DNA of 64,000 bases from Trueperaceae bacterium (GCA_965213925.1 OZ243927.1:1568001-1632000); one strand, 5' to 3'; shown: positions 28,613-38,172, counted from the stretch's first letter. Notes: a model not told the origin generated them from the letters alone. Numbers and translations are program-made.

Positions 28613-29128
28613 TTACTCGAGCCTACTCTCCACCGCTAGATGCTCCAAGAAGACCGGGCGGCTCTGCCCGTTGGTGAGAACGACGACCTCGAAAAGCCCC
28701 TGCTGCGCCAGCGTCCTTTCGACCGAGGTCAAGAGCTGCCGCTCTTGCTGCACCGAGAGGTCGGTTGGACCCTCCAGCGGAAAGTCCAAAACCGCCCTCT
28801 CGCCCAGCCGAAACACCGTGGGCACGCCCAACGCCTCGGGCCAGATCGCTTCTAACCAGGTGCGGAGCGCGGCGAGCGTCGCCTCTAGTACGGCGCTCGG
28901 CGTCTCTGGCGTCTGCACGTTCACGGTGCGCGTCTCTTGCGTCGCCGCATTGACGAGCGTAACTGCGCGCTCGACCTGTGTAGTGGGCTCGGTCTGTACC
29001 GCCCCCCGAGGCGGAGGCGCTTGACCCGGAACGCGGAAGAAGGCGTAGAGCCCGAGGAAAAAGATCAGTGCACCCAAGAGGGTCGGCAAGGTAGCGCGGG
29101 GCGTAAAAACCCTCGAGATAAGGCGCAC
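28613..29128 (-). CDS. GerMN-domain membrane protein
   Basis: N-terminal TM; AVLDF...E..LL.SVERTL...VVVLTNG pattern. Confidence 0.7.
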   Translation of the reverse strand: MRLISRVFTPRATLPTLLGALIFFLGLYAFFRVPGQAPPPRGAVQTEPTTQVERAVTLVNAATQETRTVNVQTPETPSAVLEATLAALRTWLEAIWPEALGVPTVFRLGERAVLDFPLEGPTDLSVQQERQLLTSVERTLAQQGLFEVVVLTNGQSRPVFLEHLAVESRLE

Positions 29129-29132
29129 CGTA

Positions 29133-30362
29133 TTAGGGGTCTAGCAGCCCGACGAGCGCGTCCGCGAGCGGGCTCACGAGCGCGTCCGAGGCGAGGTCGT
29201 CGGGGTTTAGCTCGAGCAGCACCCCCCGCCCCGCCGCGCCCGCAAGCAGATAGAGCGGCGCGCCCTCGACGCTGAGCGCCTGCCAACCTTCCGCTTCTAA
29301 GCGCGCGCTGAGACGCTGAGCGTAGCGTTCACCCTGAGTTAAATCGGGGACGAGGCGGCTCAAGGTGCGCTGCGGCGGCGTGAGGCTCGTCGGGTCGTCC
29401 GCGCTGAAGTCGGCTTCAGCCGCGTTCTGGCGGATGGCGGCATCTAAGCTAGCGACGTCGCCCTCGAGATAGTAAACCCCGAACTGACCTGAGCTGAGGG
29501 GCGCGGGCTCGAGCGAGACGAAGAGCGGTGCGCCGATGCCCGCCGCCATGCGCGCTGCTAGGTCCCCTTGCGCGAGCTGCACCCGCACGCCGCGCGCTTC
29601 TAGGGCGCGGCGCAGCGGCTCTGCGGCGTCGCCTGCGTCCAGCACGATAACAGGGGGCGGGCTCGTCTCCTGCGCCGCCTCGACCTCTTCCTCCGAAAAG
29701 ATGTCCACGACGACCTCGGTGCCTGCCCCTTTGGGCACCGCGTACATCTCATACGTGCTGTCTCGCCCTAACGTCAGCATAAAGTCGGTGTAGTCCGAGC
29801 CCGGCAGGAGCACCGCGTCGGAAAAACGCTGACCGCTAAAGTTCTGCTTCTGCGCTAGGTCGGTCCGCGCGAAGCGGAAGCGCACGGTGTCGAGTGAGGG
29901 CTCGTAGCGTTCGTCAATGGCGACGGGCGCGCTGAAGCGCAGCACGAAGCGCTCATAGCTGCCCCACAGGTCGGGCGGCTGCACGCTGCGCAGCCGCGCC
30001 CTCGGAAAGACCACCACCACGGTCTTCGCATCGGTGAGGTAGTCCACCTCGCCGCCGAGCCGCCGCGCGACCTCTTTAACGGGTACGTAGGGCGTCCCCT
30101 CGTGAAGCTGTGCGTCGCCCGCCTCGCCGCGCACCTGTAAGGTGACGAAGCGTCCCGCCAGCTCGAAACCGAGCGCGTCGCCGCTGTAGCGGTACGTCGC
30201 TCCCATCGCCCGCGCGAAGGGCTCAGCGGCGGCGTAGGCCGTGCCGGGCTCGAGCGTATTCGTAAACGCAGCGATGTCAACGCCGTTGACGATGAGCCTT
30301 TGCGCCGAGCCCAACATGAAGAGGTTGAGCGCGAGTAAGACGAGAAGAGGACGCCTCATCAC
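29133..30362 (-). CDS. Amidase_3-like protein with degenerate active site
   Basis: Signal peptide, stalk/AMIN-like regions, VIVLDAG(D), LFVSL(E), VLLEL; the Zn-binding His residues are missing. Confidence 0.7.
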   Translation of the reverse strand: MMRRPLLVLLALNLFMLGSAQRLIVNGVDIAAFTNTLEPGTAYAAAEPFARAMGATYRYSGDALGFELAGRFVTLQVRGEAGDAQLHEGTPYVPVKEVARRLGGEVDYLTDAKTVVVVFPRARLRSVQPPDLWGSYERFVLRFSAPVAIDERYEPSLDTVRFRFARTDLAQKQNFSGQRFSDAVLLPGSDYTDFMLTLGRDSTYEMYAVPKGAGTEVVVDIFSEEEVEAAQETSPPPVIVLDAGDAAEPLRRALEARGVRVQLAQGDLAARMAAGIGAPLFVSLEPAPLSSGQFGVYYLEGDVASLDAAIRQNAAEADFSADDPTSLTPPQRTLSRLVPDLTQGERYAQRLSARLEAEGWQALSVEGAPLYLLAGAAGRGVLLELNPDDLASDALVSPLADALVGLLDP

Positions 30363-30972: not shown

Positions 30973-31536
30973 ATGGACCTTACCCCGCTTTACCCGAGGC
31001 AGCAAACCCCTAGCTTGAGCTTACCTACCGTCGGCGGCGACACCTGGACGCTGAGCGAGCAAGCGGGTGAAAACTTCACGATGGTGGTTTTTTACCGGGG
31101 TCTACACTGCCCTATTTGCGGAACCTATCTGCGCGACTTAAACAGCAAAGCGGACGAGTTCGCTCAGCGCGGTGTGAACATCGTGGTTGCGAGCAGCGAC
31201 GTTCAAGAGCGCGCCGAGAAGAGTAAGGAGCGGTGGAAGCTGGATAACCTTACGGTGGCGTATGACTTAGACCTCGACAAGGCGCGCGAGTGGGGGCTCT
31301 ACATCTCGACGAGTCGCGGCAAAACCTCTACGGGCGTCGTCGAGCCCGACCTCTTCAGCGAGCCCGCGCTCTACCTCATCCGCCCTGACGGGACGCTCTA
31401 TTTCGGCGCAGTCCAGACAATGCCTTTCGCCAGACCGGATTTCGCACAAGTGTTGCAAGCGCTCGACTTCGTGATGGAGAAAGACTATCCGGCGCGAGGT
31501 GAGGTTGTGGACCATCAAGCGGTAGCAGCAGACTGA
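30973..31536 (+). CDS. Peroxiredoxin-like AhpC/TSA family protein
   Basis: FYRGLHCPIC, FSEP..YLIRPDG, MPFARP, YPARG; RBS AAGGAG. Confidence 0.9.
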   Translation: MDLTPLYPRQQTPSLSLPTVGGDTWTLSEQAGENFTMVVFYRGLHCPICGTYLRDLNSKADEFAQRGVNIVVASSDVQERAEKSKERWKLDNLTVAYDLDLDKAREWGLYISTSRGKTSTGVVEPDLFSEPALYLIRPDGTLYFGAVQTMPFARPDFAQVLQALDFVMEKDYPARGEVVDHQAVAAD

Positions 31537-31667
31537 GCGGAATACGCTGAAGCGTGAAGAGGCTTGGACTTGTTCCGAACCTCTTCACTCTTATTGACCG
31601 CACACTCAACATGCCAAGCACTCGTACATATCTAGCCAAGACCCGACGCACTTGTTAAGCTACAAAA

Positions 31668-33386
31668 GTGTTCGACGCCGCCAACCCGCTCATCGTGCAA
31701 GCGGACCGTTCTATCTACCTAGAGACCTTCAATGCGCGTGCGGAGGAGGCGAGGGCGGCGATTTCGCCCTTCGCCGAGTTGGAGAAGAGCCCCGAGCACC
31801 TGCACACCTACAGGCTCACCCCGCTCTCCTTATGGAACGCCGCGAGTAGCGGGCAAAAGAGCGAGACGATGGTGGCGGCGCTCACACGCTTTAGCAAGTT
31901 TCCCGTCCCTGAAAACGTGATGACTGACGTTCGAGAACTCGTCGAGCGCTGGGGGCGACTGCGGCTCATGGAGCTAGGGGCGGGGCTCGGGTTGGAGGTC
32001 CAACCCAGCGACGAAGCGCTGCTTTTGGAAATTTCTAAACAGCGCAAGGTCGCCCCGCTTTTAGGCGAACGCCTCGGCAAGCAGACCTTCGCCGTGCCAC
32101 TGGCGCACCGAGGGCTCATCAAGCAAGCCCTGTTAGAAGTCGGCTGGCCTGTGGAGGATTTAGCGGGCTACAAGGATGGGTTGGAGCTTTCCGTCGCCCT
32201 AGCGAACACCTTGCAGGTGCGTTCTTATCAAGAGGACGCGGTGGAAGCGTTCTATCTTGGGGGTTCCCGGCAGGGCGGCTCCGGCGTCGTCGTGTTGCCA
32301 CCTGGCGCGGGCAAGACTATCGTGGGTCTCGTCGCCATGACGAGGGTCGGTCAGCGCACGCTCATCCTGACGACGAACCGCACCAGCGTCAGCCAGTGGG
32401 GGCGCGAGCTTTTAGATAAGACGACGCTCGCGCAAGAGGACGTGGCGGAGTACCGCTCCAACGCGAAGAAGCTGGGTCCGGTCACGCTCTGCACCTATCA
32501 GATGCTGACCACGCGCAAAAGGCGCAAAAAGGGCGAAAAGGAGACCGAAGCGGTCTACCCGCACATGCAGCTCTTTCGCGAGCAGGACTGGGGGCTCATC
32601 GTGTACGACGAGGTCCACCTCTTGCCCGCGCCCGTGTTCCGCCTCACCGCCGAGGTGCAGGCGCGGCGGCGCTTGGGGCTTACCGCAACGCTGATTCGCG
32701 AGGACGGGCGCGAGGGGGACGTGTTCTCGCTCATCGGTCCGAAACGCTTCGACGTGCCGTGGAAGGACCTCGAGTCGAGCGGCTGGATCGCCAACGCGCA
32801 CCTCTGCGAGGTACGCCTCAAACTGTCCGAAGAAGAGCGCCTCAGCTACGCGGTCTCCGAACCCGCGCTCAAGTTTCGCATCGCCGCTGAGAACCCGCGC
32901 AAACGTGAGCTGGTTGAGCGCATCTTAGCGCACCACCGGGGCGAGCCGAGCTTGGTGATCGGGCAGTACCTGCACCAGCTAGAACTCATCGCGAATGACC
33001 TAGACGCGCCGCTCATCACGGGCGAAACCCCGCAGAGCGAACGCGAACGGCTCTTCGCCGCGTTTAGGGAGGGCGGTGTGGAGACGCTCGTCTTATCCAA
33101 AGTCGGTAACTTCGCGCTCGACTTGCCCGACGCGCAGGTAATGATTCAGGTCTCGGGCGCGTTCGGCTCACGCCAGGAGGAGGCGCAACGCTTGGGGCGC
33201 GTGCTGCGCCCGAAACGTGCGGGCGTCGGCGCTTACTTCTACAGCTTAGTGACGAGGGAAACCAAAGAGGAGGACTTCGCGCATCACCGGCAGCTCTTTT
33301 TGACCGAGCAGGGCTACGGGTATAGGATTATGGACGAGGCGGAGTGGTTGGAGCCGGAAGTAAGGGATGCGAGCGCACTGAACTAG
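31668..33386 (+). CDS. xpb: XPB/Ssl2-family SF2 DNA helicase
   Basis: N-terminal LIVQ.D...FAELEKSPEHLHTYRLTPLSLWNA; GAGKT, DEVH, GLTATLIREDG (RED), GSRQEEAQRLGR. Confidence 0.95.
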   Translation: MFDAANPLIVQADRSIYLETFNARAEEARAAISPFAELEKSPEHLHTYRLTPLSLWNAASSGQKSETMVAALTRFSKFPVPENVMTDVRELVERWGRLRLMELGAGLGLEVQPSDEALLLEISKQRKVAPLLGERLGKQTFAVPLAHRGLIKQALLEVGWPVEDLAGYKDGLELSVALANTLQVRSYQEDAVEAFYLGGSRQGGSGVVVLPPGAGKTIVGLVAMTRVGQRTLILTTNRTSVSQWGRELLDKTTLAQEDVAEYRSNAKKLGPVTLCTYQMLTTRKRRKKGEKETEAVYPHMQLFREQDWGLIVYDEVHLLPAPVFRLTAEVQARRRLGLTATLIREDGREGDVFSLIGPKRFDVPWKDLESSGWIANAHLCEVRLKLSEEERLSYAVSEPALKFRIAAENPRKRELVERILAHHRGEPSLVIGQYLHQLELIANDLDAPLITGETPQSERERLFAAFREGGVETLVLSKVGNFALDLPDAQVMIQVSGAFGSRQEEAQRLGRVLRPKRAGVGAYFYSLVTRETKEEDFAHHRQLFLTEQGYGYRIMDEAEWLEPEVRDASALN

Positions 33387-33424
33387 CAAACATAAGCGAC
33401 TGAGTATGAGTATAGAGTATCGGG

Positions 33425-33535
33425 AGGAAGCAGTTGAAAGCAATGAGTTGAAAGTGGAAAAGCTTTTTGGTTTTCACTCACTACTCACCGTTCGTCCAGC
33501 TCGACTGGATTGCTCGGTACTCATTGCTTTTTACT
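33425..33535. repeat. STRR-like GCAATGA/TCATTGC repeat element
   Basis: Reverse complement aligns with both ends of 37938-38172. Confidence 0.7.
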
Positions 33536-33548
33536 TAAAGGAGTTTTC

Positions 33549-33809
33549 ATGTCCGCTAAACCTAGACGAAATCTCAAGTTTAATTCGCTCGAGCCTTTTC
33601 CCGCTCCTAAAGAGGTCGTGCTGCACGAGGGCTTGACGCTCGTCGAGGTGTCGGACGAGGCGGAGCTGAGCGCCCTACAAGCCGACGCCCGCTTGAAAGA
33701 TTTCATCTTGGCGCGGCTCTCACCCACCGAAGCGGTGGTGCTGCCCCAGCATCACCAGAGTTTTCTCAAGGCGCTGCTCAAGGCGGGGCATACGCCCAAA
33801 GTGGACTGA
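33549..33809 (+). CDS. Small XPB-operon protein (86 aa), p8/Tfb5-like pattern
   Basis: RBS AAAGGAG; EGLTLVEVSD...LKDFILARLSPTEAVV...FLKALLKAG.P. Confidence 0.8.
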   Translation: MSAKPRRNLKFNSLEPFPAPKEVVLHEGLTLVEVSDEAELSALQADARLKDFILARLSPTEAVVLPQHHQSFLKALLKAGHTPKVD

Positions 33810-33812
33810 GCG

Positions 33813-36574
33813 GTGCCGAGAAATAGCCTATTAGAATTACTTGGTGAGTTGAGCGGCGCGCGTGAGGCAGAGACGGACGAAGGCGTTTCACCGGAACTGC
33901 TCGAGAAGCTTCGCGTGCTGGGCGTGAGCGTCGGTACCTCGGGGCTCGATAAGGTGACGCTCACTTCGTCACCCGGCGCGGCGTCGGTACCTGCGAGCGA
34001 AGGCGTAGGGTTAGAGCCCATGCTGCAGTACATGAACGTAGACCAGCTCAAGCAGGTTGCTAAGCGCTTTAACGAAGAGGCAAACGCGAGTCGCATGGCG
34101 GAGAGTAAGAAAGCTGTCAAACAGGCGCTTAGTAAGCCCGCAGCGCTGAAACAGATGGTAGCCGCGCTCAGCCCGCTCGAGCGCGCGCTCTTAAACGAAG
34201 TCAAACGGCGCGGCGGCGCGGCGGACGGCTGGTCGCTTATCGTTTACGCCGCCTTACGCGGTTTGAAGCCGAATAAGCGAGTAGGTAGCGGCAGCGTCTA
34301 CAAGCAGCAACTCAGCAGCGCTTTAGGGCTCGAGTATCTAGGCGTGCTGATTCGCGACGGGCTGCTCATCCCCGCGAGCAACCTCGCGTCGTGGTTTTTG
34401 CGCTATCAGTATTATATGAGCGAGAGCAGCCCCGAAGACGACGTTTTGCTCGCAGACCCGCGCCTCCTCGCGCAGCTACCGGACGAGCCGCCCCCAGAGC
34501 TGCAACCGCTCGCCCTTGAACCGCCCGCCCTTGAATCACCCGGTGGCGTCACGCTTACAGCGGTGCATCCAATGCGGACGTTGCTCGAGCTGTTCGACCT
34601 CTTGTCCCTCGTCACCGAAGAGGGCGGCGTGCAAATTACGCAGCGCGGCACGGTCAGCAGAACGCTGCTCAAACGCTTGGCGAAACGCAGACCGAACTTG
34701 GACAAGCGCATAGAAATGCTGCTGCATTTAGGCGTAACATTAGGGCTCTTCGATCCGCCTATAAGCGAATCTAGTAAAGACCCCTGGCGCGTCAACTTCA
34801 CCCGCCTACACGCCCTTAGAAGTGCCCCGCTCGCGCTGACCTATAGCTTCGCCATAGACGCCTCGCTGCAAATCCCCGAGGCGGAAGACGCTAGGGGCTC
34901 GGGCGCGTCCAGCTTGATCTCGAAAGAGGTGGCGAAGCGGGCACTTTTGGAGAGTTTGGAGGCGTTGCCAGAGGAAAGCGTGAAGCTGGACGCGGCGCTG
35001 GCGGCGCTGTGGGAGCGGGCGCTCAAGTACGTGGCGAGGGCTCCGCGCTGGGGCGACGACGCCGAGCCCAAGCGCCCCGCTTGGTTTACGGGCGTGCTGC
35101 AAGGCGCGTTTCACGAACTGGGTTTAGTGGCAACGGCGGAGCTAAAGGGCGTAAGCGAACCGCAAAAGAAAGCTCGCGGCGGCGTCAAGGTGATGGTTAA
35201 TGGAGAGATTGTGCCAGCGGCGTCCCTCTACAAAGATGACACCGCGCACAAGTACGCCGTCGCGCCCGCATTAGGTTTCGAATGGTTTCAGCGTGGGCGA
35301 GCCTTGCAAGAGGTCACGACGCCGCCCGAAATAACGCAGCTTCGCTCACTTAGGGGACTCGAGCCCGAGACGGGCAAACCCAACGAGCCTAGCTTGCTGA
35401 TTCAGCCGAACTTCGATATTTTAGTCTACCTGGATAAACTCACGCCCGCCGCGATGACCGCGCTCAGTTGCGCCGCCCTCACCCGCGTAGACGCGCAAAC
35501 GGCGAGCTACACGCTGAGCCGGGGGAGCCTCTACCGCGCCCTCGAGACCGGACTAGACCTAAAGGGCTTACTCGACCTCTTGAATGAGCACAGCATGGGC
35601 GTCCCCGACAACGTCACGCAGAGCCTGCGCGACTGGGCGTCACGCCGCGAGCGCTTGCGCGTGCAGGAGGATGTGCGGCTGCTCGAGTACGCCAGCCAAA
35701 AAGAGCGCGACGCCGCCTTGAAGAAGTTGACGGAAAGAGGTGCGCGTGCCCTCGCCGAGCGGTTCATCTTGCTAGAAAGAGGTGCACAACTCCCTAAAGT
35801 CAAGGTGCGCCACCCCTACGACCGTGCGCCGAGCCGTACGCTGCGCTTTTTACCCTCGGGACACTTCAAGTTGGAGGGTGCCACCGATTTAGCCGGACGC
35901 GCCGTCTTAGCGCAACTCGCTACTCAAGACGAAAAAGGGTACCACCTCGACGTGGATAAGGTTCGCGCCGGAGCGCTCACCCAAGCCGCCCGCGACGCGC
36001 TTACCGAACGGGCTCAAGGCGGTCTGCCGCCGCAGCTAGAAGCGCTCATTAACGTGTGGAGTGGCCAGAGCGCCGCGCCCACCGTCGCGACGATTCGCGT
36101 CTTTCAGCACCCGAGCGCGGCGGCGCTCGCCAAACACCCCAAAATCGCGCCGCACTTGGGCACAGCCATCAATGAAACGAGCTTTTTGGTTCAAGAGGGG
36201 CATGAGGAGCGGCTCGAGCAGCACCTCTCCGAGCTTGGTATAGAACCCGCCGAACGCTTCAAAGCGGACGTCAAACCGCAAGTCATCGACAGCAGCGCCA
36301 TGCAGACCGGGCTCAACACCCGCAAGATGCGCGAGTTAATCGAGGCGGCGATTGCGCAAGGGCGGGGCTCGAGCTGCGCTACCACCACGAAAAGACGAAC
36401 TACAACCGCTACGGTTACGACAAAAAAGTCAAGGGCAAGCTCGTCACGGAAAAGGTCACGCCCGAGTCGGTGACGTATTCGGGCTCGACGCCCTACGTGC
36501 GGACGAGTGCGCCGGGTAAGAAGGGGAGTTTTGAGATTCGGGTTGGGTATATTGAGGGGATTGCGGTGCTGTAG
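33813..36574 (+). CDS. XPB-associated helicase_C_3 (p52/Tfb2-like) protein with WYL-like tail; one base missing near 36365
   Basis: LLIQPNFDILV...YTLSRGSLYRALETG...VPDNV..SLRDW; the frame restored by one base reads LELRY...KVTPESV...IRVGYIEGIAVL* to 36574. Confidence 0.85.
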
Positions 36575-36576
36575 GT

Positions 36577-36657
36577 GAGGAGTAGTCAGTGGTCAGAATT
36601 CAGTGGTCAAATAGCTTGTCTGCTGACTACTTACTACTGATTCCTGACTACTCCTCC
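36577..36657. repeat. STRR-like (AGTAGTC/AGTGGTC)n...(GACTACT)n inverted repeat between convergent genes
   Basis: ggagtagtcagtggtcag...ctgactacttactactgattcctgactactcc. Confidence 0.65.
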
Positions 36658-36684
36658 TTTCGACCTCTTACTTCCTCACGCAAC

Positions 36685-37881
36685 CTAACCTCTAAACTGT
36701 GACAAATACGCCCTCGAGATAATCAGATGCTGAATCTCGTCTGTTCCCTCACCGATTCTCGTAAGCCTCGCGTCGCGCCACATCCGCTCGACGTGGTACT
36801 CCTTGATGTAGCCGTAGCCGCCCAAAATCTGAATCGCGTAGTCGCACGCCTTGACCCCGGCGGTGCTCCCCTTGAGCTTCGCCATAGACGCCGCCATCGC
36901 GTAGTCCTTGCCCGCGTCTTTAAGCGCCGCCGCTTTGATGACTAAGAGCCGCGCCGCCTCTAACTCCGTCGCCATCTCCGCAATCTTAAAGCTGATGCCT
37001 TGATTGTCCGCAATGGGCTTGCCGAACTGCTCGCGCTCTAAAGCGTACTTCGAGGCAATTTCTAGTGCGCCGCGCCCGAGCCCGATACCCATCGCGCCGA
37101 TGCCGATGCGCCCGCCGTTTAAGACCTCCATCACGTCCTTAAAGGCTTCGCCGCGCGCGCCGAGCAGGTTTTCGGCGGGAACTTCTAAGTTCTCAAAGGT
37201 CAAGGGCGTCGTGTCAGAGGAGTGTAGTCCCAACTTCTCCTCGGGCTTGCCGCGAATCAGACCTTGCGACTCGCCGTCAAAAACGAATGCGCTGATGCCG
37301 TTTGAGGGCGAACGTCCCTCCTCGGCCGCGTCGGTGCGCGCGAGAATGACGTAGGTGCCGCCCACCGTGCCCTGCGTGATGAAAATCTTCGAGCCGCTCA
37401 CGACGAAGTGGTCGCCCATGTCCTCGGCTTTGGTCTTCATCCCCGCCGCGTCCGAGCCGGAGCTAGGCTCGGTGAGCCCCCACGCACCGAGCTTTTCTGC
37501 GCTTGCTAAAGAGGGTAAAAACTCACCCTTTTGCGCCTCGCTGCCTGCAATCTGGATATGCCCGGTGCAGAGCGAGTTGTGCGAGGCGACGGTCAAGCAG
37601 AGCGAGCCGTCCACAGCGGCAATCTCTTCGATGATGCGCGCCATCGTTTCGGTATCTAGCGCGGAGCCGCCGTACTGTTCAGGGACTTGCATCCCCATCA
37701 CGCCGAGTTCGCCGAGTTGTTTAACGATCTCGAGGGGAAACTCCCCCGACTTGTCCCGCTCCAACGCGCCCGGTGCGACTTCGTGATTCAAAAAATCTTT
37801 GAGCGCGCCAATCAGCGCTTTCTGGTCAGCGTCTAGCTCGAACCAGAGGTTGTTTTCAACATTTTGAAGTGTAGTCGTCAT
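36685..37881 (-). CDS. Acyl-CoA dehydrogenase
   Basis: [39 protein letters not shown]; leaderless TATAAT. Confidence 0.95.
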
Positions 37882-37937: not shown

Positions 37938-38172
37938 AAGAAAGCAATGAGAAAAAGACAGTTGAAAGCAATCCAGTCGTACCCGGAGGGCACAGGGCTG
38001 GTTAGGTAATCTTTTGCCGGAGGGCAAAACTTCGTTTGCGTAGTCCTCCTTCGGGAGAAGCGAAGCAATGTACGTCAGTTTTTCCGATTACGAAGTTTTC
38101 GCAGAAGCGAAACGGCGAGCAATGAGTGAAAAGCCCTTGGTTTTTACTTTCAACTCATTGCTCATTGTTATC
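37938..38172. repeat. STRR-like element with a nested REP-like insert
   Basis: GCAATGAG/CTCATTGC arms enclosing about 130 bp with hairpins TTTTGCC..GGCAAAA and AAACTTCGT...ACGAAGTTT. Confidence 0.7.

Follow-up and report, generated by a model that had tools for sequence, protein, structure and literature searches.

Here, we describe a three-gene unit in a 64,000-nucleotide stretch of the genome of a Trueperaceae bacterium (GCA_965213925.1 OZ243927.1:1568001-1632000), which we refer to as the window and number from its first letter. On its plus strand lie a gene for a bacterial XPB helicase (31668..33386), a small gene for a protein of 86 residues (33549..33809), which is the subject of this study, and a large partner gene (33813..36473). 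A first-pass annotation, made from the sequence alone, had described the small gene product as a stand-alone protein similar to p8/TTDA, known as Tfb5 in yeast. Our data support this interpretation with caveats, and we assign a probability of roughly 0.6 to the reading that the protein is a p8/Tfb5-like third subunit of a bacterial module made up of XPB, a p52-like protein and a p8-like protein.

The small gene starts with an ATG at 33549 and ends with a TGA at 33807-33809, 3 nt before the GTG start codon of the large gene at 33813. An AAGGAG motif of the Shine-Dalgarno type (33538..33543, plus strand) can be read directly off the sequence 5 nt 5' of the ATG, so that both the ribosome-binding site and the tight spacing to the large gene are as the first-pass annotation had described them. 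The N-termini of orthologues read MSAK or MPAK, and the ATG at 33549 is therefore favoured over an upstream TTG at 33510. The encoded protein begins with a variable, Lys/Arg-rich basic tail that is predicted to be disordered (residues 1-21), followed by a conserved core from E22 to V85 that closes with the family motif KAGHTPKV. The residue pattern on which the likeness to p8 had been based is present in this core (G28-L-T-L-V-E33, D36, D46, K50-D-F-I53, T60, V64). A word-indexed search returned 30 close homologues with E values from 1.9e-43 to 2.7e-23. Those that carry a name are all called "hypothetical protein", a label that had been anticipated for a gene this small, and one record stems from a Deinococcota bacterium. 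Among 1.84 billion proteins the family profile finds 124 cluster representatives (50% identity) at E <= 1e-3, most of which are stand-alone proteins of 60-130 residues. H26, L76, G80 and P83 are nearly invariant in an alignment of 88 diverse family members, which we term A2; A1 denotes a narrower, Deinococcota-only profile. The ratio of nonsynonymous to synonymous substitution rates (dN/dS), calculated over the 64-codon core, was 0.016, 0.053, 0.119, 0.079 and 0.082 against the five nearest orthologues, to which this comparison is limited; more distant pairs were saturated at synonymous sites and left out. The 86-residue open reading frame (ORF) is a genuine gene under strong purifying selection. 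Conservation and dN/dS rule out that it is spurious or the shadow of the ORFs on the opposite strand at 33521-33727 and 33752-34204. Curated resources are silent on the protein: neither Pfam nor NCBIfam nor PADLOC offers a usable match, the sole NCBIfam row being a YihI fragment at E 0.1 that we judge to be noise, and a search of a protein atlas gave only unnamed small bacterial clusters, plus one cluster with 14% Helicase_C_3.

The upstream gene encodes a protein of 572 residues that reaches 806.9 bits with the bacterial XPB model NCBIfam NF045503, well above the cut-off of 610. Pfam recognizes ERCC3_RAD25_C, Helicase_C_3 and ResIII in it. The Helicase_C_3 domain is N-terminal (residues 8-136), the damage recognition domain (DRD) spans approximately residues 108-160 and two RecA-like domains follow.

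The large downstream gene encodes 886 residues as annotated. We read its product as a bacterial p52/Tfb2-like scaffold because Foldseek, VIA-align, a profile search against the PDB and sub-threshold Tfb2 matches point to this family. The AlphaFold2 model of the partner, calculated with 35 homologues, has a mean predicted local distance difference test score (pLDDT) of 79.2 and a predicted template modelling score (pTM) of 0.64. All 18 Foldseek matches of this model in the PDB at E <= 0.001 are p52/Tfb2 chains from human, yeast and Chaetomium TFIIH (E values of 3.1e-9 to 8.4e-5 over some 570 alignment columns), and XPB chains come next. With VIA-align, residues 230-614 superimpose on p52 128-400 with Z scores of 11.6-12.6 over 215-245 residues. 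Part of this region is a clutch-like domain (residues 525-613; 35385..35651, plus strand) equivalent in fold to the N-terminal domain (NTD) of XPB; it superimposes on human XPB 73-164 with a Z score of 14.6, a root-mean-square deviation (rmsd) of 1.3 Å and 24% identity. Helicase_C_3 (residues 528-627, E 4.6e-13) is also the only Pfam match of the partner. When the profile of 35 partner homologues is compared with PDB sequences, the clutch domain of p52/TFB2 ranks first (E 1.2e-3 to 3.4e-2) and the XPB NTD is found at E 0.11. The Pfam Tfb2 model (PF03849, cut-off 34.5 bits) has no match in the partner protein of the window itself; below the threshold it matches 9 of the 16 partner homologues scanned, with E values of 3.4e-6 to 0.14, a best score of 26.7 bits and coverage of profile positions 241-358 of 358. 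The clutch-like domain is followed on the plus strand by a post-clutch domain in the place that the C-terminal domain (CTD) takes in p52 (residues 616-730; 35658..36002), and by a C-terminal domain (residues 757-813; 36081..36251).

The first-pass annotation had placed a large partner gene directly behind the small gene. The adjacency holds and the partner is p52-like, but in the present assembly the gene is frameshifted. Compared to its orthologues it is one base short in a run of G residues at about 36364-36367, so that the annotated 886 residues close with a basic tail read out of frame. The orthologues P0156 and P0157 (about 80% identity, 934-936 residues) run on in the shifted frame, which in the window (36364..36574, plus strand) encodes a WYL-like C-terminus and closes with a stop codon at 36572-36574. 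Public data offer a single contig that spans this position, from a strain of about 97% identity; it has one extra base and is in frame. There is no coverage of this position by a contig identical to the window. The frameshift may be an assembly error. The WYL-like domain at the end of the p52-like partner is recognized by Pfam WYL in the orthologue P0167 (22.0 bits, cut-off 21.8) and below the threshold in the C-terminal 70 or so residues of P0172 and P0186; its equivalent in the window is 36367-36574 in the shifted frame. A further bacterial p52-like partner, P0127 (746 residues), carries a SWIM zinc finger at its N-terminus.

The small gene and XPB are inherited together. In 301 Deinococcota genomes, one of which (G251) is flagged as unpublished, a six-frame search with A2 found the small gene in 45, and 46 were positive with the XPB model. 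Because these genomes are mutually related, the figures that follow describe co-inheritance rather than a statistical test: the small gene is present in 45 of the 46 XPB-positive and in none of the 255 XPB-negative genomes, so that presence and absence agree in 300 of 301. In the lone XPB-positive genome without a match for the small gene (G278), the contig breaks off within 128 bases of XPB, at the flank that would carry the small gene. The module is patchy in the phylum; it occurs in 15 of 55 genera and in none of the 62 sampled genomes of one family (f3). Where the locus was compared, in 29 other Deinococcota genomes and in the window itself, the order XPB, small gene, large gene on one strand is the same at all 30 loci, with small-protein identities between 41% and 95%. 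In metagenomes, beyond the phylum, an alignment of four distant small-family members (A5) picked up 41 small-gene loci. An XPB match lies on the same fragment in 35 of them, in 34 cases upstream on the same strand and in one case (L072) on the opposite strand. Of the six loci without XPB, four are on fragments of at most 1.4 kb and two (L065, L073) on longer ones. Variants of the arrangement exist among the metagenome loci (L053, L064, L058, L060), in which the small gene comes last, after XPB and the large gene, or the small domain is part of a fusion, and at an Actinomycetota locus from a metagenome-assembled genome (L003) the small gene directly follows a Helicase_C_3 protein. At L003 (2116-5550), a YhcG/DUF1016 PDDEXK nuclease comes after the pair of partner and small gene, together with a WGR-plus-ligase-like protein and an AbiEi-like regulator, a context that appears closer to mobile or defence DNA than the housekeeping surroundings in the present window.

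This pattern bears on the idea that the small protein has an unrelated function, for instance as a transcription regulator or an antitoxin, and simply rides in the XPB operon. Such a passenger would explain why no curated family is matched, and the fold of the protein is a common one. It would hardly explain a presence and absence that follow XPB with a single exception located at a contig end, nor a gene order that stays fixed across 41-95% identity. Furthermore, neither a helix-turn-helix nor a toxin partner is seen, and the small protein is homologous to domains of both of its neighbours, as described below. We therefore regard an unrelated function as very improbable.

The interaction of the small protein and its partner was modelled with partner residues 500-830 (alignment A3) and small-protein residues 18-86 (A2). 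The interaction prediction score from aligned errors (ipSAE) had a median of 0.78 (0.68, 0.83 and 0.78 in the individual runs), compared to 0.01 for the best control. In a calibration, which is rough given that custom alignments were used here, 116 of 157 solved complexes scored as high as 0.78, as did 2 of 215 mismatched pairs. The runs share at least 89% of their contacts, and the pLDDT of the partner is at least 84. On the small protein the predicted interface comprises residues 19-35, 50-58, 61-69 and 72-86, and on the partner residues 611-628, 647-653, 660-670, 692-697 and 723-729, with the tightest predicted pairs formed between the small-protein strand 24-33 and partner residues 616-625. 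The most conserved residues of the small protein, H26, L76, G80 and P83, fall within the predicted interface, and so do several partner residues that vary little or not at all (R612, L623, E625, F651, Y669, D692 and R696). In the models the small protein docks on the domain right after the clutch and does not touch partner residues 757-813. It is thus predicted to bind the post-clutch domain of its partner, which is where p52 binds p8.

Which domains the small protein is related to becomes visible at the profile level only, since a pairwise BLASTP comparison with XPB and with the large partner gave nothing significant. When 70-residue slices of the partner alignment were slid past A2 with hhalign, one clear peak appeared at partner residues 770-813 (probability 96%, E 4e-9). 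The hidden Markov model (HMM) of the small family scores the same C-terminal domain with 17.6 bits, and a six-frame search of the whole genome (4.7 Mb) with A2 hits two places only, the small gene itself (E 3.4e-32) and partner residues 770-812 (E 1.25e-3). Against an alignment of 17 XPB proteins, hhalign gave a single peak at residues 108-160, the DRD, with a probability of 95.2% and E 2.5e-8; slices of XPB short of this region stayed below 1%, and the family HMM scores XPB residues 113-159 with 13.5 bits. By these profile comparisons the small protein is clearly homologous to the DRD of XPB and to the C-terminal domain of its partner. Its family also reaches into longer proteins. The 124 cluster representatives include seven Helicase_C_3 proteins of 600-770 residues (P0122, P0127, P0141, P0144, P0145, P0149 and P0151), in which the stretch similar to the small protein adjoins and partly overlaps the end of Helicase_C_3, that is, the position of the p52 CTD. 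This stretch forms the C-terminus in six of the seven. The exception, P0145 (763 residues), contains two such domains, the better-matching one internal (residues 535-606) and the second one C-terminal (residues 703-757). Pfam Helicase_C_3 itself matches 6 of the 88 small-family members, with a best E value of 0.051.

The same homologies could point to a regulatory decoy, a protein that competes with an in-cis domain (partner residues 757-813 or the XPB DRD) for the docking site and in this way switches the complex between states. Clear homology to both in-cis domains fits this scenario, as do proteins of other bacteria in which the domain continues the clutch directly in one chain (P0141, P0122 and others) or is doubled (P0145). 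However, in the predicted complex the small protein makes no contact to residues 757-813, and this domain is not predicted to occupy the same site. A constitutive subunit would account for the strict co-inheritance just as well. We consider a decoy improbable.

The fold of the small protein was modelled with AlphaFold2 at a mean pLDDT of 67.6, with core blocks at 79-83 and residues 1-27 below 50. The core has a beta-alpha-beta-beta-alpha arrangement with a strand at residues 30-33, helices at 37-45 and 47-50, strands at 53-58 and 61-64 and a helix at 66-79. Foldseek finds no PDB match for this model at E <= 0.001; the list of weak matches contains mostly XPB in TFIIH, Tfb5/p8, MutS domain I and archaeal XPB. 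With VIA-align, the model superimposes on human XPB 164-294, a DRD-like region, with Z scores of 7.3-9.2 (rmsd 2.0-2.4 Å, 64-68 residues), on Tfb5/p8 chains with 4.7-5.2 (49-53 residues), on the p52 CTD with 4.6 and on the archaeal XPB DRD with 4.6-5.1. An independent search of 48,161 chains likewise ranks human XPB 164-294 first (Z 8.0) and places yeast Tfb5 sixth (Z 5.5), Chaetomium p8 at 4.8, the Tfb2 CTD at 4.3 and human p8 at 4.1. Across both searches the match to Tfb5/p8 amounts to Z 4.1-5.5 with an rmsd of 2.5-3.0 Å over 49-53 residues, and unrelated domains of the ACT/ArgR type score equally. The structure search tool itself warns that Z scores below 8 are commonplace for small folds. 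Taken alone, the modelled structure supports a DRD/p8-type small alpha/beta domain and nothing further.

These comparisons lend support to a different role, in which the small protein is a stand-alone DRD that binds DNA or senses lesions beside XPB instead of serving as a p8-type adaptor. In fold, the protein comes closest to the human XPB DRD (Z 8.0-9.2, 2.0 Å over 65-67 residues), and its profile-profile homology to the bacterial XPB DRD is strong. Two DNA-binding domains, MutS domain I and the N-terminal domain of T4 UvsW, superimpose with Z scores of 4.5-5.6, and the Lys/Arg-rich N-terminal tail would also suit a DNA-binding protein. What speaks for an adaptor is the prediction of the complex with the partner, which clearly exceeds its control, and the location of the highly conserved H26, G80 and P83 inside the predicted protein interface. 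We regard an exclusive DRD-type role as unlikely. A DNA role of the DRD type and an adaptor role of the p8 type are, moreover, mutually compatible.

A search with A2 against 177,635 distinct PDB sequences yielded ten matches at E <= 10, headed by five constructs of yeast TFB5 (E 0.0054-0.008, 19-20 bits), in which profile positions 27-73 are aligned to Tfb5 8-54; this alignment contains the motif on which the first-pass annotation had based the likeness by eye. The predicted fold is not unrelated to Tfb5, and homologues lie next to XPB in all 30 Deinococcota loci examined and in 35 of 41 metagenome loci. The claimed likeness to p8/Tfb5 is thereby supported, with the caveats of a marginal E value for the sequence match, a blank result for Pfam Tfb5 and the XPB DRD as the closest fold.

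Several observations weigh against a p8-like subunit. The TFB5 match is marginal, and the matches that come next are unrelated designed TIM barrels with E values of 0.03-0.13. A2 does not retrieve human p8 from the PDB sequences at E <= 10, and the profile A1 retrieves nothing from them at this threshold. The Pfam Tfb5 model (PF06331, cut-off 23.5 bits) gives no match to the small protein at E <= 1, hits 1 of the 88 family members (E 0.12) and finds nothing at E <= 10 in a six-frame search of the genome of the window; the same search with Pfam Tfb2_C finds nothing at the locus. The confidence of the small-protein model is only moderate, with a core pLDDT of about 80, and its nearest solved fold is the XPB DRD and not p8. 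The Z scores are middling for a common small alpha/beta arrangement, and ACT-like or ArgR-like domains reach 5-7. The basic N-terminal tail of about 20 residues sets the bacterial protein apart from p8. As for the predicted complex, its score may reflect that the model remembers the solved p52-p8 structures. Between the predicted docking site (partner residues 616-730) and the small protein there is only weak similarity, with a second hhalign peak at residues 617-651 (probability 4%, E 0.01; other slices below 3%), and a symmetric pair of like domains as formed by p8 and the p52 CTD is therefore not demonstrated. A single Tfb2_C match elsewhere in the genome (E 0.9) was dismissed as noise, as control genomes match too.

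Read most simply, these data place three domains in one family, with the small protein as the free-standing version of a small alpha/beta domain that makes up the DRD of XPB and the C-terminal domain of the partner as well. The p8 protein and the p52 CTD are probable relatives of this family, linked to it less firmly. By analogy to TFIIH, the clutch of the partner would grip the N-terminal Helicase_C_3 domain of XPB, a domain that shares its fold. As modelled, the small protein would then pair its strand 24-33 with partner residues 616-625 and dock right after the clutch. A pair resembling p52 CTD and p8 might in this way be completed and placed against the XPB motor, where it could tune the ATPase or translocase activity. 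We infer physical binding, the contact to XPB and any effect on activity from these comparisons. In a more far-reaching version, which we offer tentatively and hold to be somewhat doubtful, the XPB/p52/p8 sub-module would not be a eukaryotic invention at all. Bacteria would possess it as a self-contained set of three genes, an ancient family duplicated inside the module would comprise the small protein, the p52 CTD and the XPB DRD, and the WYL-like sensor could turn the unit into a signal-regulated DNA translocase.

The spacer of 162 nt between XPB and the small gene is largely filled by a short dispersed repeat (33432..33528), which does not belong to the coding part of the module. Over this repeat the contig depth rises 10-fold or more, with loose ends at both sides, and 48 further matches to 33425-33535 are present in the genome of the window, mostly partial, with 67-100% identity and on both strands. 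Another copy lies at about 38111-38162. The repeat may be an element resembling a miniature inverted-repeat transposable element (MITE) or a small non-coding repeat. A promoter and terminator scan of 31400-36800 revealed nothing informative within this spacer. The genes between 24 and 46 kb are of the housekeeping kind and include two tRNA synthetase-type genes and the genes for SmpB, a peroxiredoxin, an acyl-CoA dehydrogenase, a pyrophosphatase, a NUDIX protein, ClpX, ClpP, trigger factor and BshC. Given these surroundings and the lack of a PADLOC match for either partner, we dropped the idea that the module is cargo of a defence island; the module may nevertheless act in defence. Beside smpB, two adjacent ORFs of 170 and 408 residues (28613-30362, minus strand) have no Pfam match at E <= 1e-5, and the longer one starts with a hydrophobic N-terminus similar to a signal peptide.

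How does the module compare with known systems? In the accessible parts of the structural work on TFIIH, p52 is described to carry a clutch with the fold of the XPB NTD, which pairs with this NTD, followed by a dimerization module or CTD that binds p8 and cradles the RecA2 domain of XPB (PMC6422496). In Chaetomium TFIIH the ATPase of XPB is stimulated by p52 and then by p8, and p8 contacts the thumb motif of XPB, as stated in the sections available from that study (PMC7708078). For bacteria, the available text of a 2026 review calls the function of XPB elusive and mentions no bacterial partner (PMC13024598), and our search of the full-text literature, which leaves out most subscription journals, brought up no paper on p52-like or p8-like proteins of bacteria. 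If our reading is true, the module offers a minimal and genetically tractable system to study the control of XPB by p52 and p8 without the rest of TFIIH, as well as a concrete entry point into the origin of the TFIIH core. It also gives a testable role to an unannotated family of small proteins with 124 cluster representatives at 50% identity.

Among individual proteins, p8/TTDA (GTF2H5)/Tfb5 shares with the small protein its stand-alone nature and an alpha/beta core of 60-70 residues. The bacterial protein is encoded together with XPB and a p52-like protein and is predicted to bind the domain after the clutch, as p8 does according to the accessible part of the structural work (PMC6422496); yeast Tfb5 is the top, albeit marginal, PDB sequence match of its family profile (E 0.0054), and the fold similarity to Tfb5/p8 chains amounts to Z 4.1-5.5. 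It differs from p8/Tfb5 in that it stays below every Pfam Tfb5 threshold, leaves human p8 unmatched by sequence, carries a basic tail and the C-terminal KAGHTPKV motif, and is bacterial and operon-encoded. A context of p34, p44, p62 or XPD is not seen at the locus, where none of these was specifically looked for. The XPB DRD (human residues 165-300, the N-terminal domain in archaea) is the best structural match and shows clear profile homology, but it is a helicase domain, whereas the small protein is a separate polypeptide, translated from a start codon and a ribosome-binding site of its own. It also lacks the insertion of about 70 residues that eukaryotic DRDs possess, as far as the accessible description goes (PMC6422496). 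The small protein resembles the CTD of p52/Tfb2 in fold (Z 4.3-4.6), and a homologous domain directly follows the clutch in seven bacterial Helicase_C_3 proteins. In the present case, however, the small domain is free-standing, and the partner's own copy (residues 757-813) lies further downstream after an extra domain. The bacterial partner in turn has a WYL-type domain of the kind that senses ligands or nucleic acids, which eukaryotic p52 does not have. The archaeal XPB-Bax1 pair offers another precedent for a prokaryotic XPB with a dedicated partner that is encoded next door and contacts the motor, as described in the available parts of two publications (PMC7672443, PMC13024598). Bax1, however, is a nuclease unrelated to p52 and p8, and Pfam and NCBIfam detect no nuclease domain in the two partners described here. 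The nearest known system is thus the XPB/p52/p8 sub-module of eukaryotic TFIIH, with the small protein itself closer to the XPB DRD by profile and structure. Subject to the caveats given above, our data support the view that the present module is a bacterial, operon-encoded version of this eukaryotic module and that its small subunit belongs to a family without curated annotation.

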